DNA of 42,177 bases from an uncultured Candidatus Peribacteria bacterium (lineage in GTDB: Bacteria > Patescibacteriota > Gracilibacteria > Peribacterales > Peribacteraceae): positions 1 through 42,177 of the forward strand of contig CAZQCB010000001.1 of the NCBI GenBank assembly GCA_964592265.1. The letters run 5' to 3'. Positions 37,096-42,095 of this stretch are shown here, in pieces (position 1 is the first letter of the stretch; every line of letters starts with the position of its first letter). Below the pieces are notes generated by a model. The model saw nothing but the letters and a program-made list of their open reading frames with translations. It was not told the origin of the DNA and did not search any database. The position numbers and the translations under genes are program-made.

Positions 37096-39330
37096 TTACA
37101 ACCCCTTCGCAATGAATTCATCCATCTTCGCAATCATGCCTTCGAGGCTGTGACACTCGGCAACGATGCGGTAGAGCTCGTCGGCATTTGTGCCCTGGAA
37201 ATGCTGAATGAACGCAGCAACGGCTTCAGGGGTATCTTCGTCCGGAGCGGAGAGTAAACCAATTGCCTCAGCGTTCTTTTTCGTCGTCACGGGGTAGCAT
37301 CCACAGGTCATTGCCTCAAGCATCGTCTTATCAATGGTCTCACTGGCCATATTGAGAATGAACCGGTGCTGCGGATAGATCTCCTTCAACTGCTCCATGG
37401 GCACCGTGCCGTGGAAGGTGACGCGGGATTCAAGACCCAAGCTCGAAACGAGCTGCCGAAGCTCTGCGACATAATCCGGTTCCGCTGCGATACCGTAGAT
37501 CACCATCGTATATATCTCCGGAAGAAGTTTGAGCGCTCTCAAACTGATTTCCACACGCTTGCTTCGGGATAATCGGTGCACGACGAGAAGTTCATGTGGA
37601 TTTCCTGTGACACTCGGTCGCTTCTTCCAGAAATCGAGGTCAATGCCATGACCAGTTACAATCTTCTTCGGTGATCCCTCATACTGAGGCAAGCTCTGTG
37701 CAGTCGCACAGAAAAAGCGTTTCCCAAAGAGGCCGAAGAGGAAGACTCCGAGCTGCATCTTGTAGTGCGTGTACCAGAGGTAGACCGGAATGCCTTTGAG
37801 GAGCCACCACCAAAACCCAAGCGTATACCACACGGGAGACATATGGATGAAGACGCGGTCGTATTGGAGGGAGAAAATATATTTGTAGAAGGACAGAATT
37901 TGCCGGATCTTGCCGAATCTGCGTTCCTTTCCCATGGAGAAAACCTGTCGCACGTCACTCCGTGACGTGTGCTGCATGTCGCGGAGCGACATGCGACTAT
38001 TCTCCAGGCAGAGCACCTGAACGGTATATCCCTTCCTCTCAAAAGCCCTTACCCAGAGCTCGACGAACGCATCCTGTGTGTGCATCTTTTGGGTGATGAA
38101 GAGCAATGAAAGTTTCTTCGGAGAGGAAAGATTTTTCAGGAACTCTGCGTATTTCTGCACAGCTTCACCGGGAGCGAAACGGGAGAGGACTTCTTTTCTT
38201 GCACGCTCCCCCATTGCCCTCGTGGAAGAAAAATCACCAAGGAGCACCTGCAATTTCTCTGAAAGATTTTTTGCTGAACCATCCGTGAACTTCACAAGCT
38301 CACCATCCTCCCCAAACTGTGGCATGATCCCCACTCTCGTCGTGACCACGGGCATCCCGAGCGCCATCGCTTCGATGGCGACACGGGGATTCCCTTCACT
38401 TCGGGAATTCACAAGGAAAATTTTCCCTCGCTGCATTTCCCGGTACACGTCACGTTGCTCCGGAAGCCATCCTGCGAATGTCACACGATCATCGATCCCG
38501 AGAGATCTTGCCTTGTCCTCCAGACGTGCTCGTTCTGGCCCATCACCGATGAGAAGGAGTGAAACCCCCTTCAAAGATGAAATAGCCTGGAGTACCTCAA
38601 AAAGCCCTTTATTGGCCGTAAGACGCGCGCAAGCTACAACGTCGTACTCCTCCCTTATGGAGGGGCCTGGCATGAGCGCAGAGGCATCCAGGTAGAGGGA
38701 AGGCACAATCTCGACTTTCGCTTGCGGGATTCCCCACTGCATCAGTTTCTCCTCTACTTCATTATTCACGGTTCGCACCTTGGCGGCAGCCCGCACCGTT
38801 GCTTTGAAAAAAAATGGCCAGTGATACATCCACCGTCCAATGCGTTCCTGTAAAGACGCAGCCGTGGGATATCCCACGATGTGATGTACCTCAACTCCAT
38901 AGGGAGTGCGAGTCACACGATGCAACCACCGCGCACCAATCCCGTTATAAAACGGCGGGTAGTCGTGAACTGTCATCACCCAGTCCGGCATCTTCTTGCT
39001 TTTCAAAAGTTCTTTCCCTTTCTTGAGAATGAAGAAAGGTTGGTACCACAGCCTGTGAGGAGAAGAGTGGAAGAAAACATTCGGCAAATCCGAAATCCGA
39101 AATCCGAAATCCGAAACAAATTCGAAATTCGAATTTCGTGCTTCGTGCTTGTTTCGAATTTCGTGCGGAGCTTGTCCTGAGCCTTGTCGAAGGGTGCTTC
39201 GGATTTCTACTCTTGGGCAGATAATTTCGATTCTCTCAAAATGTTTCGAAAGTTCTTCCAAGGTGTAATAGAAAGCACCCTTCTTGCCGGAAGAGACTGA
39301 TCTGTCGCCGGAAATCATCAGAAGATTCAT
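37096..39330 (-). CDS. two-module GT4 glycosyltransferase fusion
   Basis: 744 aa. Module 1 contains FLVNSRSEGNPRVAIEAMALGMPVVTT. Module 2 contains ILNMASETIDKTMLEAMTCGCYPVTT. ATGA overlap with the upstream gene. Confidence 0.8.
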   Translation of the reverse strand: MNLLMISGDRSVSSGKKGAFYYTLEELSKHFERIEIICPRVEIRSTLRQGSGQAPHEIRNKHEARNSNFEFVSDFGFRISDLPNVFFHSSPHRLWYQPFFILKKGKELLKSKKMPDWVMTVHDYPPFYNGIGARWLHRVTRTPYGVEVHHIVGYPTAASLQERIGRWMYHWPFFFKATVRAAAKVRTVNNEVEEKLMQWGIPQAKVEIVPSLYLDASALMPGPSIREEYDVVACARLTANKGLFEVLQAISSLKGVSLLLIGDGPERARLEDKARSLGIDDRVTFAGWLPEQRDVYREMQRGKIFLVNSRSEGNPRVAIEAMALGMPVVTTRVGIMPQFGEDGELVKFTDGSAKNLSEKLQVLLGDFSSTRAMGERARKEVLSRFAPGEAVQKYAEFLKNLSSPKKLSLLFITQKMHTQDAFVELWVRAFERKGYTVQVLCLENSRMSLRDMQHTSRSDVRQVFSMGKERRFGKIRQILSFYKYIFSLQYDRVFIHMSPVWYTLGFWWWLLKGIPVYLWYTHYKMQLGVFLFGLFGKRFFCATAQSLPQYEGSPKKIVTGHGIDLDFWKKRPSVTGNPHELLVVHRLSRSKRVEISLRALKLLPEIYTMVIYGIAAEPDYVAELRQLVSSLGLESRVTFHGTVPMEQLKEIYPQHRFILNMASETIDKTMLEAMTCGCYPVTTKKNAEAIGLLSAPDEDTPEAVAAFIQHFQGTNADELYRIVAECHSLEGMIAKMDEFIAKGL
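39086..39207. repeat. heptamer-periodic nested-palindrome element (AAATCCG x4 etc.), in-frame in CDS
   Basis: Read directly. There are four perfect heptamers at 39086-39113 and a 16-nt palindrome at 39123-39138. A 12/13 stem pairs 39105-39117 with 39151-39163. TTCGGATTTC at 39198-39207 pairs with the heptamer units. Confidence 0.9.
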
Positions 39331-40502
39331 CGTGTGCGCGAGAGAGTGAGAAATTCTTCCGCAACATCGTTCCAGGTTCGCTTTGGAGGAGGCGAAGCAG
39401 AGGCTGTAGCATACATATCGTATTCTTTCTCTACTTCTTCAATTGCAGCTACGATCTCTTGAACAGTCAAAAGATCACGGAGAATCATTCCTTGAGAAAG
39501 GGCGCTGCTTAAGCCCGTCTCCTTCGTAAGGAGCACAGGGAGACCCGCTGCACGCGCTTCAAGCGCTACATTAGGGCTCATTTCGGTAACGGAAGGGAGA
39601 ACCAGGAGATCGTGCTCCGCGAACACTTCCTGTTTTTCTTCACCGTGCGCCGGGGGGTAGAATGTCACAATGTTCTGCAACTGAAGTTTTGCCACAAGAA
39701 AACGTAAGGAGCTCTCCACAGGTCCCTCACCGACAAAGGTCAGCGTTGCCCTTCCATGGTCATTCTTCAGAGCGACAACAAACGTGAGCAAATTTTTGAA
39801 TCCCACGAACCTCCCCATGAAAAGAAGGCGAAATGGATCGTGCTTCTTATGTTCTTCAGCCTTACGTACCAATTCACTAGTGAATTGGTATATTTGTTCT
39901 GGTAGGGCATTCTCAATCACAGAATGTTTCGGGAGATCCTTGTAATGCTTTTCATAGAGCTTTTCTTGAAACCGTGTAGAAAAGACGATGTGATCGAACG
40001 TACGAAGCATCAATCGCGAAACGAAAAACGAAAAACGAAAAACGAGCGAACGTTCTTCATACCATTCTCTCAAGCTCTTCATTCCCCCTCTATCCGTATA
40101 CCGCTCCCAGAAGAAATCCCCGCCAAGCCGAAGCAGCAGCTTCGGCTTGCCCCGAGCGAAGCCGAGGGGCGAGCACATGCGCCAGAGCATAATCGGCACG
40201 CCACAACTTACCGAGGAGAAAGCAACAATGACATCTGCATCGACCGCATGTTGTTTGAGCGCCTTTGCATACCTCCACCATCGAAGTAGCGGCCCACCCA
40301 ACTTTGCCACATGAATCACGGGCCAATCTTCTTTGGAAATTGGAAATTGGAATTTGGGATTTGGGATTTGGTGCTTCGGCACATACGTCACCACCTTCAC
40401 CTCATTCCCCTTCTTCGTAAATTCCTCCGCAAGTGCCTGCACATAAGTCGCGGGACCGCCAATATCAGGTGGATAGATGCCTGTAGCGAGGACGATCTTC
40501 AT
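39327..40502 (-). CDS. GT4 family glycosyltransferase
   Basis: 391 aa. MKIVLATGIYPPDIGGPATY and LVLPSVTEMSPNVALEARAAGLPVLLT are present. Confidence 0.85.
   Translation of the reverse strand: MKIVLATGIYPPDIGGPATYVQALAEEFTKKGNEVKVVTYVPKHQIPNPKFQFPISKEDWPVIHVAKLGGPLLRWWRYAKALKQHAVDADVIVAFSSVSCGVPIMLWRMCSPLGFARGKPKLLLRLGGDFFWERYTDRGGMKSLREWYEERSLVFRFSFFVSRLMLRTFDHIVFSTRFQEKLYEKHYKDLPKHSVIENALPEQIYQFTSELVRKAEEHKKHDPFRLLFMGRFVGFKNLLTFVVALKNDHGRATLTFVGEGPVESSLRFLVAKLQLQNIVTFYPPAHGEEKQEVFAEHDLLVLPSVTEMSPNVALEARAAGLPVLLTKETGLSSALSQGMILRDLLTVQEIVAAIEEVEKEYDMYATASASPPPKRTWNDVAEEFLTLSRTR
39867..39890. repeat. 24-nt perfect palindrome TACCAATTCACTAGTGAATTGGTA, copy 2
   Basis: Identical to 15195-15218. 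Here it is read in-frame as YQFTSELV inside the GT4 gene. Confidence 0.95.
40017..40049. repeat. heptamer tandem repeat CGAAAAA x3 with degenerate flanks
   Basis: The sequence reads CGAAA CGAAAAA CGAAAAA CGAAAAA CGAGCGA. It encodes RSLVFRFSFFVS on the minus strand. Confidence 0.9.
40122..40151. repeat. GC-rich hairpin (11/12-bp stem, 6-nt loop) inside CDS
   Basis: The sequence reads GCCAAGCCGAAG-cagcag-CTTCGGCTTGCC. Confidence 0.8.
40336..40377. repeat. heptamer array GAAATTG x2, GAATTTG, GGATTTG x2, GTGCTTC
   Basis: Read directly. It follows the same ordered unit series as 39124-39151 and ends in GGTGCTTCGG, as at 39195-39202. It encodes KHQIPNPKFQFPIS. Confidence 0.9.
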
Positions 40503-40987: not shown

Positions 40988-42004
40988 TTACGCCCGATAC
41001 CACGCGATCGTCTTCTGTAACCCCTCCGTAAAGCTCACCTTCGGACTCCATCCGAGCTTTCGGATCGCAGAGGAATCGAGCGCGTAGCGCCAGTCGTGCC
41101 CTGGGCGGTCCTCCACAAACTTGATGAGGCTCTCCGGCTTTTTCAAGATGTTCAGAATCATTTTTGCAACAGCTATGTTCTCCTTCTCATTGTCAGCAGA
41201 AATATTGAAGAGGTGACCGGAGCCCTTTCTTTGGCTTGCATGCACACCAGGAACATCCGGATCCCAGAACGCCCACTCCGTACGGAGGATGAGTTCCAGC
41301 GCATCGCAGTGATCCGTCACATACAGCCAGTCTCTCTTATTCTTCCCCTCCGCGTAGACGGGAATCGGCTCGTCCTTCAGCGCATGGCGAGTGATTGTGG
41401 GGATAAACTTCTCGAGAGCTTGATGAGGTCCAAAGTTATTCGTGCAACGGCTGATGCATACTTTGATCTTGTACGTCCGCATTGCCGCCATGAGGAGCAT
41501 CTCCGCGGCAGCTTTGCTCGCAGCATAGGGAGAACTCGGCAAAAGAGGATCGCCGACGTTCCGCGGTCGGTCGTCATCGCCGATATCCCCGTAGACTTCG
41601 TCTGTGGAAATATGAAGGAGGCGAACCTGGGGATGTGCCCGACACACCTCGATCAAACTCTGGACCCCGAGAACATTCGTGTGAAGGAACGGAGAAACAT
41701 CTTTGATGCTGTTATCGACGTGCGACTCCGCAGCGAAGTTCACGATGGTATCGATGCCATGTTTTTTCACGAGTTCCGAAACGAGCTCCTGATCCACAAT
41801 ATCGCCTTCCACAAAGGTGATCTTCTTCAAAACGGGGCCGAGGAACGCTTTGTCCGCGGCGTATGTGAGCTTATCGAGGACAACCACGTTATCCTTCGGA
41901 AATTGTGCTTGCCCTGAACCAAACTTGTTCTGGTTCGGGGCGACGTGGCGGAGGACGAAGTGGGAGCCGATGAACCCTGCCCCTCCAGTAACCAAAAGAT
42001 TCAT
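40988..42004 (-). CDS. rfbB: dTDP-glucose 4,6-dehydratase
   Basis: 338 aa from ATG42004 (MNLLVTGGAGFIGSH). AAESHVDNSI, STDEVYG, PYAASKAAAE, NNFGPHQALEKFIP, RDWLYVTDH and DRPGHDWRYALD are present. Confidence 0.9.
   Translation of the reverse strand: MNLLVTGGAGFIGSHFVLRHVAPNQNKFGSGQAQFPKDNVVVLDKLTYAADKAFLGPVLKKITFVEGDIVDQELVSELVKKHGIDTIVNFAAESHVDNSIKDVSPFLHTNVLGVQSLIEVCRAHPQVRLLHISTDEVYGDIGDDDRPRNVGDPLLPSSPYAASKAAAEMLLMAAMRTYKIKVCISRCTNNFGPHQALEKFIPTITRHALKDEPIPVYAEGKNKRDWLYVTDHCDALELILRTEWAFWDPDVPGVHASQRKGSGHLFNISADNEKENIAVAKMILNILKKPESLIKFVEDRPGHDWRYALDSSAIRKLGWSPKVSFTEGLQKTIAWYRA
41894..41936. repeat. possible degenerate copy of the heptamer/GTGCTTG element inside rfbB
   Basis: The sequence reads CTTCGGAAATTGTGCTTGCCCTGAACC, followed by a GAACCA/TGGTTC stem. 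It encodes NKFGSGQAQFPK, which looks like an insert relative to remembered RmlB N-termini. The match is short, so confidence is low. Confidence 0.35.
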
Positions 42005-42016: not shown

Positions 42017-42029
42017 GTCCCTGCGAAGA

Positions 42030-42090
42030 GAATTAAGAATCAAGAATTACGAATTAAGGGTCCTAATTCTGAATTCCTAATTCCTACTTC
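42030..42090. promoter_or_regulatory. 4+4 inverted heptamer array (GAATTNN x4, GGGTC, NNAATTC x4)
   Basis: The array reads GAATTAA GAATCAA GAATTAC GAATTAA gggtc CTAATTC TGAATTC CTAATTC CTACTTC. 21 of 28 arm positions are complementary. It sits between the two divergent -10 boxes. Confidence 0.8.
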
Positions 42091-42095
42091 CCCTC

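Follow-up and report, generated by a model that had tools for sequence, protein, structure and literature searches.

Rickettsia palindromic elements (RPEs) are palindromes of ~100–150 bp without coding capacity of their own. They are inserted into protein genes of unrelated kinds without disrupting the reading frame, and appear in the products as additional surface segments that the fold can accommodate [see PMC10969869]. A locus that invites comparison with them lies in the genome of an uncultured Candidatus Peribacteria bacterium, a member of the candidate phyla radiation (CPR). The window, i.e., the whole stretch of DNA that was analysed, comprises 42,177 nucleotides (nt): positions 1 to 42,177 of the forward strand of contig CAZQCB010000001.1 (GenBank assembly GCA_964592265.1). 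Towards its end is a gene for a fused double glycosyltransferase of the GT4 family, and within this gene lies a block of heptamer repeats and nested palindromes. The block probably derives from a dispersed repeat that forms long hairpins and has no coding capacity of its own; the copy here would be degenerate and in frame, and translated as a tolerated loop.

Two further groups of described repeats are relevant. The first comprises ERIC/IRU, REP/BIME, Correia, BOX, Nezha and Chunjie, which are imperfect palindromes of ~100–150 nt in short, transcribed intergenic gaps; repeats of the ERIC, REP and miniature inverted-repeat transposable element (MITE) type have a variable internal length and nested insertions, and are occasionally fused in frame within genes [see PMC10969869]. 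The second comprises tandem repeats of seven nucleotides. According to two accounts, both citing Mrazek 2007, no other long simple repeats are as over-represented in many bacteria as those of heptamers, and slippage has been proposed as their origin [PMC4692102; PMC4679880]. The STRR repeats of cyanobacteria, GGGAATC of Xanthomonas, GGGGAYT of Nostoc and TAACTGA of Beggiatoaceae consist of 7-nt units in tandem, typically ~2–6 and up to 26 in Xanthomonas and Nostoc; they often occur as inverted pairs able to form stem-loops, and their length varies between close relatives [PMC4692102; PMC4679880].

The features of the locus are as follows (positions are those of the window; aa, amino acids; ORF, open reading frame; TRF, Tandem Repeats Finder).

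37096 to 39330, minus strand: host gene, fused double GT4 glycosyltransferase, 744 aa, N-terminal module aa 1–400 (basis: ORF, Pfam, AlphaFold2, Foldseek).
39082 to 39210, minus strand: hypervariable loop-coding segment, 43 aa (VEIRS...ISDLP) between strands 2 and 3 of the N-terminal Rossmann domain, holding the whole composite insert (basis: tblastn anchors against 81 orthologues, and alignment A1).
39085 to 39166, minus strand: body of the heptamer-armed hairpin element, profile positions 17–137, without the apical region (basis: nhmmer and alignments A2, A3 and A5).
39086 to 39116, plus strand: perfect AAATCCG array of 4.4 copies; on the coding strand these are CGGATTT units and form the 3′ arm of the element, its units apparently homogenised (basis: TRF and string check).
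39123 to 39138, no strand: perfect 16-nt palindrome CGAAATTCGAATTTCG, the short apex of the hairpin, replacing the ~50–60-nt apical region of full-length copies.
39139 to 39166, minus strand: inner 5′ arm; its coding-strand sequence, GCACGAAATTCGAAACAAGCACGAAGCA, is nearly identical to GCACGAAATCCGAAACAAGCACGAA, the core of the family.
39167 to 39193, plus strand: nested second element, a 27-nt REP-like core GGAGCTTGTCCTGAGCCTTGTCGAAGG, which encodes TLRQGSGQA, with GTGC direct repeats at 39163–39166 and 39194–39197.
39198 to 39207, plus strand: 5′ arm, outermost unit, which reads GAAATCCGAA on the coding strand and closes the outer stem with the AAATCCG array (basis: inverted repeats I4, I7 and I8, and DNA fold).

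Every feature that the initial annotation had read from the letters was borne out by string checks at the positions given, with one small correction of register. The AAATCCG array is perfect over four units at 39086–39113 (TRF: period 7, 4.4 copies, 100% matches), the 16-nt palindrome at 39123–39138 is its own reverse complement, 12 of 13 positions pair between 39105–39117 and 39151–39163, and TTCGGATTTC at 39198–39207 is complementary to GAAATCCGAA at 39092, 39099 and 39106, i.e., in three registers of the array. The units that follow the array (GAAATTC GAATTTC GTGCTTC GTGCTTG) had been placed in its register; they are 7-periodic with respect to each other, but are shifted by 3 nt from the first array. 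The 744-aa ORF does read through the block (...ICPRVEIRS-TLRQGSGQAPHEIRNKHEARNSNFEFVSDFGFRISDLP-NVFFHSSP...), and the impression of a nested palindrome has a concrete basis: a second dispersed repeat (39167–39193) lies within one arm, between the GTGC direct repeats. In folding predictions, none of 200 dinucleotide shuffles was as stable as the 138-nt block, either as DNA (z = −3.9) or as the mRNA strand (z = −3.2). Across the window, period 7 was the sole period from 2 to 12 that gave 28-nt stretches with at least 85% self-match: there were 16 of these, and none for the other periods.

The block is homologous to repeats elsewhere. A profile built only from five metagenome loci (L084, L086, L087, L088 and L090), with the window left out, matches window positions 39085–39166 (nhmmer E = 2.8e-15, 56 bits); it also matches the Peribacteria loci L014, L058 and L027 and the metagenome loci L082–L090. 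The metagenome scan was seeded with the GT4 protein and used six back-translated peptide patterns, of which the pattern HEIRNKHE is encoded by the insert, and gave more than 600 stretches across the six patterns. Among the matches listed there was no close relative of the GT4 protein, and in six kept metagenome loci (L084 and L086–L090) the likeness to the query is confined to its insert. In the DNA examined here, ~40 copies were found in total.

Members of this hairpin family are ~110–170 nt long, with arms of ~45 nt. Each arm consists of ~5–6 degenerate heptamers (CGAAATC, CGAAATT, CGAAGCA, CGAAACA), which have their complements on the opposite arm. The layout of the element is conserved: a 5′ arm AAATTCGAAGCACGAAATCCGAAACAAGCACGAA, a variable apical part, and a 3′ arm TTTGAATTTGTTTCGGATTTCG...TTCGGATTTCG; the conserved stem is centred around CGAAATCCGAAACAAG / TTTGTTTCGGATTTCG, and its core is almost invariant across 24 copies. 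Read on the coding strand, the window copy follows the same order: GAAATCCGAAGCAC, then the 27-nt core together with a repeated GCAC, then GAAATTCGAAACAAGCACGAAGCACGAAATTCG leading into the short palindromic apex, and finally AATTTCGAATTTGTTTCGGATTTCGGATTTCGGATTTCGGATTTG. Excising 31 nt (the 27-nt core and one of the GTGC duplications) from the window copy gives back the family consensus AAATCCGAAGCACGAAAT. At the position occupied by the AAATCCG array, other copies have TTTCGGATTTCG-nnn-TTCGGATTTCG, and L084, L112 and L116 also have 3 to 3.5 identical units in that arm.

Full-length copies have stop codons in two to six of the six reading frames, and in at least four frames in seven out of nine copies; as most frames contain stops, there is no conserved ORF in the family. 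In L088, which was examined frame by frame, most of the stops fall in the apical part. The window copy is without this apical part (short-apex variants occur elsewhere, in L121, L117 and L106) and is open in five of its six frames, including all three of the coding strand.

The distribution of the family is wide. The element in L086 sits in the gap between carA and carB, and because the CarA protein of this contig is 90% identical to one from a metagenome-assembled genome (MAG) of Deltaproteobacteria, the contig can be assigned to Desulfobacterota. Exact arm patterns and the profile identified copies on ~25 viral contigs in IMG/VR with G+C contents from 0.42 to 0.68, some of which have two or three copies; the exact 25-mer pattern GCACGAAATYCGAAACAAGCAYGAA is also present on viral contig L091, and one viral copy adjoins a portal gene. 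A 17-nt pattern from the right arm was estimated to match the viral collection ~ten times by chance, hence only viral copies confirmed by the profile were counted.

Tandem heptamers are themselves a trait of Peribacteria, and this bears on an alternative origin of the block. The 80 kept GTDB genome loci with an orthologue of the GT4 gene have titles that are nearly all Peribacteria or Peregrinibacteria, and none is Rickettsia. In these 80 genomes (1.31 Mb) there are 149 arrays of period 7, compared with 0–33 for each other period from 4 to 12, so that the tandem 7-nt units are over-represented relative to other unit lengths, as in the STRR-like long simple repeats. About 70–80% of the arrays are inside long ORFs, and their G+C content is 42%, compared with 54% for the genomes. 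Adjacent arrays are mutually inverted in 14 of 15 cases, and between a third and a half of the arrays have an inverted partner within 200 nt, compared with 2–11% in controls. A common heptamer consensus was considered and rejected, as the pairwise distances resemble those of random heptamers of the same composition, and no common flanking motif was found around the Peribacteria arrays.

The block might have arisen in place, by slippage and fold-back duplication of a heptamer, without insertion of an element. The diversity of the arrays (155 arrays of 103 different heptamers, which share no consensus) and the perfect run of four units, which looks like local slippage, are what would be expected of such an origin, as is the excess of heptamers for which slippage has been proposed in many bacteria [PMC4692102; PMC4679880]. 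However, stretches of arm sequence of ~25 nt and ~22 nt are near-identical and in the same order in unrelated organisms and in phages, and an identical heptamer recurs ~8 times more commonly within a locus than between loci, which points to copying rather than to independent birth. A purely local origin of the block is therefore improbable, and the sequence of the arms argues for a copy of the dispersed hairpin.

The protein into which this copy is translated matches the Pfam families Glycos_transf_1 (PF00534, 2.2e-44) and Glyco_transf_4 (PF13439), and the AlphaFold2 model is a confident GT-B fold (pLDDT 89.7, pTM 0.86), the best Foldseek matches of which are MshA, BshA and HepE (probability 1.00). 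The two Rossmann-like domains, together with the Glycos_transf_1 signature, place it among the GT-B enzymes of the GT4 family. Its homologues are proteins of Peribacteria and Peregrinibacteria, and P0001 (704 aa), which is the closest relative at 73% identity in alignment A1, also has the fused architecture.

In an alignment of 33 sequences, the stretch from ICPR to NVFFHPSP is the one hypervariable spot. The bounds of this loop were set in 82 orthologues by means of flanking protein anchors (tblastn). GT4 relatives had been described in the initial annotation as having only a short loop here; this is so for the median (~48 nt), but the range extends from 27 to 156 nt, and at 129 nt the loop in the window is the joint second longest. 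The loop is short and free of repeats in about half of the orthologues, while 30 of the 82 have a strong period of 7 (at least 11 of 14 self-matches) made of unrelated heptamers, such as AATCAAG, GTGGAAA, GCGATTA and GGTGCCA; in the closest relative, the site holds GTATTAC units. In all 82 orthologues the loop has a length that is a multiple of 3 and is free of stops. The loop is therefore permissive with respect to both length and sequence. Within the AlphaFold2 model, pLDDT is low only in residues 41–80 (below 50 in residues 48–66), between flanking strands at 33–38 and 82–89, and a small two-strand hairpin is predicted at residues 69–79.

It had also been suggested that the 7-nt units act as a slipped-strand contingency switch, in which a gain or loss of one AAATCCG unit shifts the frame and turns the GT4 protein off or on. 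The unit length is indeed no multiple of 3, the array has four perfect units and lies in a gene for the synthesis of surface polysaccharide, and heptamer arrays are concentrated around the glycosyltransferase and rhamnose genes, both in the window and in related loci. The hypothesis fails because all of the orthologous loops, including the 30 with heptamer arrays, are in frame; a repeat number that shifts the frame, as in phase-variable contingency loci, was not found in any of the 82. Moreover, the GT4 site holds imperfect arrays whose sequence changes from one relative to the next, as the GTATTAC units of the closest relative illustrate, and most members of the hairpin family are intergenic, where the reading frame is irrelevant. 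Four units are also few for a contingency locus with a high rate of switching. A switch at this site is accordingly very unlikely, although rare variants in the number of units may occur.

Even less credible is that the ~30 additional residues were adopted as a new functional loop, for example as a disordered linker or an interaction surface. They are translated, and a two-strand hairpin is predicted within them; in addition, tandem repeats of Borgs that produce disordered regions of proteins have been argued to be under selection [PMC9879509]. However, neither the sequence nor the length of the loop is conserved among the 82 orthologues, the confidence of the model is low in this region, and the residues follow from a nucleotide repeat that in most cases does not code for protein.

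What appears to have been conserved is the hairpin at the level of nucleic acid. The predicted RNA folds of the copies are very stable (−40 to −88 kcal/mol), and at two pairs of the stem, in three sequences each, G-C has changed to C-G or to U-A. In the carA-carB gap, the close relatives L095 (2684–2806), L086 (4024–4172) and L096 (2700–2845) have the same element; in L095, several CGAAA units have become CTAAA together, and TTTCG has become TTTAG on the opposite arm, i.e., the change was concerted. These compensatory changes show that the hairpin as such is maintained. The copies lie in tight gaps, 0–60 nt past a stop codon, between genes that are co-directional (15 copies), convergent (6) or divergent (2). 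Among the 92 ORFs within 1.5 kb of copies, Pfam identified capsid, portal, terminase, GT4 and carA genes as neighbours.

Because the stem is conserved and copies follow directly after genes, a selected role of the hairpin is possible: it could be a terminator or attenuator, a site that stabilizes mRNA or is cut by RNase III, or a site for binding of a protein, and the copy within the GT4 gene would then modulate GT4 expression. Conservation of the stem across phyla and G+C contents, with pairing kept by compensatory changes, the stability of the RNA folds, the position of copies after genes (often phage capsid genes) and rarely between divergent genes, and the fact that many orthologues have a hairpin or array at this same point early in the GT4 gene are all in keeping with such a role. 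Against this, the copies have no uniform orientation with respect to the gene upstream (by our own tally, ~11 are sense and ~7 are antisense), there is no consistent run of T past the hairpin, the half of the orthologues with a short loop have no repeat there, and no Rfam family was matched. As the explanation of the block, a selected element is unlikely, although it is compatible with a selfish origin and the two are not exclusive. The sub-threshold matches that Rfam did give, to microRNA precursors of plants and animals, arise because the element is a long hairpin, and mean nothing more. An integron attC site, a CRISPR-like solitary repeat, a retron msd and a hammerhead-like motif were also considered and dropped, as there was no supporting feature for any of them.

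The window copy of the dispersed hairpin is composite, as its 5′ arm contains a second repeat. The motif CCTGAGC-N(0-6)-GTCGAAGG occurs as 15 exact matches in 13 of the 80 Peribacteria loci, where ~0.02 would be expected by chance by our own estimate; it is present once in the window, compared with 0.01 expected. An nhmmer profile of the nested core gave 27 matches in 19 loci, mostly inside long ORFs, and the core also fills the same GT4 loop in L037, L008 and L005. The GTGC..GTGC duplication was seen only at this 27-nt core.

A resemblance to the core was also seen at window positions 41895–41940, in a nearby gene. The rmlB-like gene (40988 to 42004, minus strand) encodes a homologue of dTDP-glucose 4,6-dehydratase, which has insertions of 10 aa (PNQNKFGSGQ) and 17 aa relative to PDB 2hun. 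The DNA for the PNQNKFGSGQ insertion is a hairpin (z = −2.9) with 12 bp in its stem; the 5′ half of this hairpin, GCTTGCCCTGA, resembles the nested REP-like core.

Comparison of the copies suggests the following order of events. A copy of the hairpin would have landed in the DNA for the permissive surface loop of the GT4 protein. Only a form without the stop-bearing apical region would then have survived there; with all three coding-strand frames open, such a form could persist in the gene. Subsequently, the CCTGAGC..GTCGAAGG repeat would have inserted into one arm, leaving the direct repeat of 4 nt, and local slippage may have homogenised the 3′ arm into four identical CGGATTT units. The resulting composite would now be transcribed and translated as ~30 extra loop residues, which are predicted to be mostly disordered. 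Like RPEs, it would behave as selfish or neutral DNA to which the loop is tolerant.

Several observations weigh against a mobile repeat of this kind. That the arms are so strongly conserved between phyla, and between genomes of differing G+C content, could instead mean that they have a conserved function. No transposase or other mobilising gene was among the 25 most frequent Pfam families of the 92 neighbouring ORFs, no consistent direct repeat that would represent a target-site duplication was found in the flanks of 20 copies (the ends of the element being unfixed), and there was no clean empty site among close relatives, so that mobility is deduced from distribution alone. Searches with blastn against plasmids and GenBank phages found no copy, although the low-complexity filter may have hidden matches. 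Of two protein searches with the insert peptide, one gave no match and the other a single weak match; hence, no further in-frame copies of the family are documented. In the 42-kb window, nhmmer found one clear copy of the family and one weak relative.

The weak match of the insert peptide, P0241, is a predicted protein of 154 aa with three spaced copies of the arm-encoded NFGFVSDF(D/G)IRISNLF. It is probably a spurious ORF over tandem copies of the element.

How does the dispersed hairpin compare with the described systems? The likeness to RPEs put forward in the initial annotation holds in so far as the block belongs to a dispersed palindromic repeat and is in frame and translated, in an intact ORF of 744 aa with a confident fold outside the insert; no unrelated homologue was found in which the peptide occurs but the repeat does not, and the element has further copies at the nucleotide level. 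Membership of the RPE families is not supported, however: the host is a Peribacteria genome rather than Rickettsia, and the hairpin family is mainly intergenic, crosses phyla and is present on viral contigs. Arms made of 7-nt units are not a described feature of RPEs. The heptamer-armed consensus is presumably unlike RPE sequences as well, and no match in Rfam or another library pointed to a relation.

With the intergenic palindromes and MITEs, the hairpin family shares its location in gaps, a variable interior, a nested insertion and an in-frame copy within a gene, and, like MITEs, it is small, non-coding and multi-copy with long terminal inverted repeats. However, MITEs are defined by terminal inverted repeats in common with a parent insertion sequence and by target-site duplications, neither of which is demonstrable for the hairpin family; no parent insertion sequence or transposase with the same terminal repeats was found in the neighbourhoods within 1.5 kb. 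In addition, known families of the ERIC or MITE type are confined to a genus or family, whereas the hairpin is found in Peribacteria, Desulfobacterota and phage contigs of very different G+C content. The heptanucleotide repeats of the STRR, Xanthomonas, Nostoc and Beggiatoaceae types are essentially intergenic, with one or few heptamers per genome, whereas most of the Peribacteria arrays are within ORFs and are of many heptamers; furthermore, these simple repeats consist of a single repeated unit, whereas the family of the window block has a conserved composite arm sequence. Literature on heptamers in Peribacteria or Patescibacteria, on peptides of the insert type, and on MITEs with heptamers gave no account of the hairpin family or of the heptamer trait of Peribacteria, within a coverage that is incomplete.

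A broader hypothesis is tentative and, on balance, doubtful. All of the hairpins may belong to one family of structured elements that passes from phylum to phylum, CPR bacteria included, partly on phages; it would either spread without an adjacent transposase or be kept by a widely conserved host or phage factor that recognises the invariant stem CGAAATCCGAAACAAG / TTTGTTTCGGATTTCG, and concerted and compensatory change of its 7-nt units would generate the genome-specific heptamer arrays in Peribacteria genes.

As an in-frame copy of a dispersed hairpin, the block would extend the phenomenon known from RPEs, i.e., selfish palindromes inside protein genes, to a lineage of the candidate phyla radiation. 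As the hairpin is common to Peribacteria, Desulfobacterota and phage contigs, it must be asked how a non-coding element of 130 nt crosses phyla. The unit-by-unit, concerted change between close relatives is a tractable case for the origin of heptanucleotide arrays, a question that dates from the first surveys of simple repeats in bacteria. In practical terms, such elements inflate or distort predicted proteins and create spurious low-complexity ORFs in MAGs, and recognition of them improves annotation.

Other period-7 arrays of the window are restricted to its last 3 kb. Positions 1–39000 contain no such array, although one would be expected every ~9 kb from the average of Peribacteria loci. 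The density of arrays in 36 full-length loci is ~3 times higher upstream of the GT4 gene, on the glycosyltransferase and rhamnose side, than downstream. Two of the arrays are in a paralogous GT4 gene of 391 aa (39327 to 40502, minus strand), which has the same loop hotspot, after the residues VVTY. Both are solitary and in frame: TTTGGAA/TTTGGGA of 5.7 copies at 40332–40371, directly at this hotspot, and AAACGAA of 3.9 copies at 40019–40045. At least 13 orthologues from other Peribacteria genomes have arrays at the VVTY hotspot. The remaining case is an intergenic inverted pair at 42026–42094, in which four units of the AGAATTA type face four of the TAATTCC type; this heptamer hairpin lies between the divergent rmlB-like gene (probable start ~42004, minus strand) and an rmlA-like gene (start 42110), and its fold is weakly better than those of shuffles (z = −1.4).

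A third type of repeat, the G+C-rich palindrome CCCCTC...GGGGAGAGGGG, encodes peptides such as PLPPRGEGE and SPRGERG, and fills the same GT4 loop in L073, L014, L046, L025, L048 and L008. One loop of the GT4 protein has been colonised by three different families of small repeats in Peribacteria. The G+C-rich palindrome is also present at the 3′ end of carA in a Desulfobacterota relative (L092/L094, 2622–2690).

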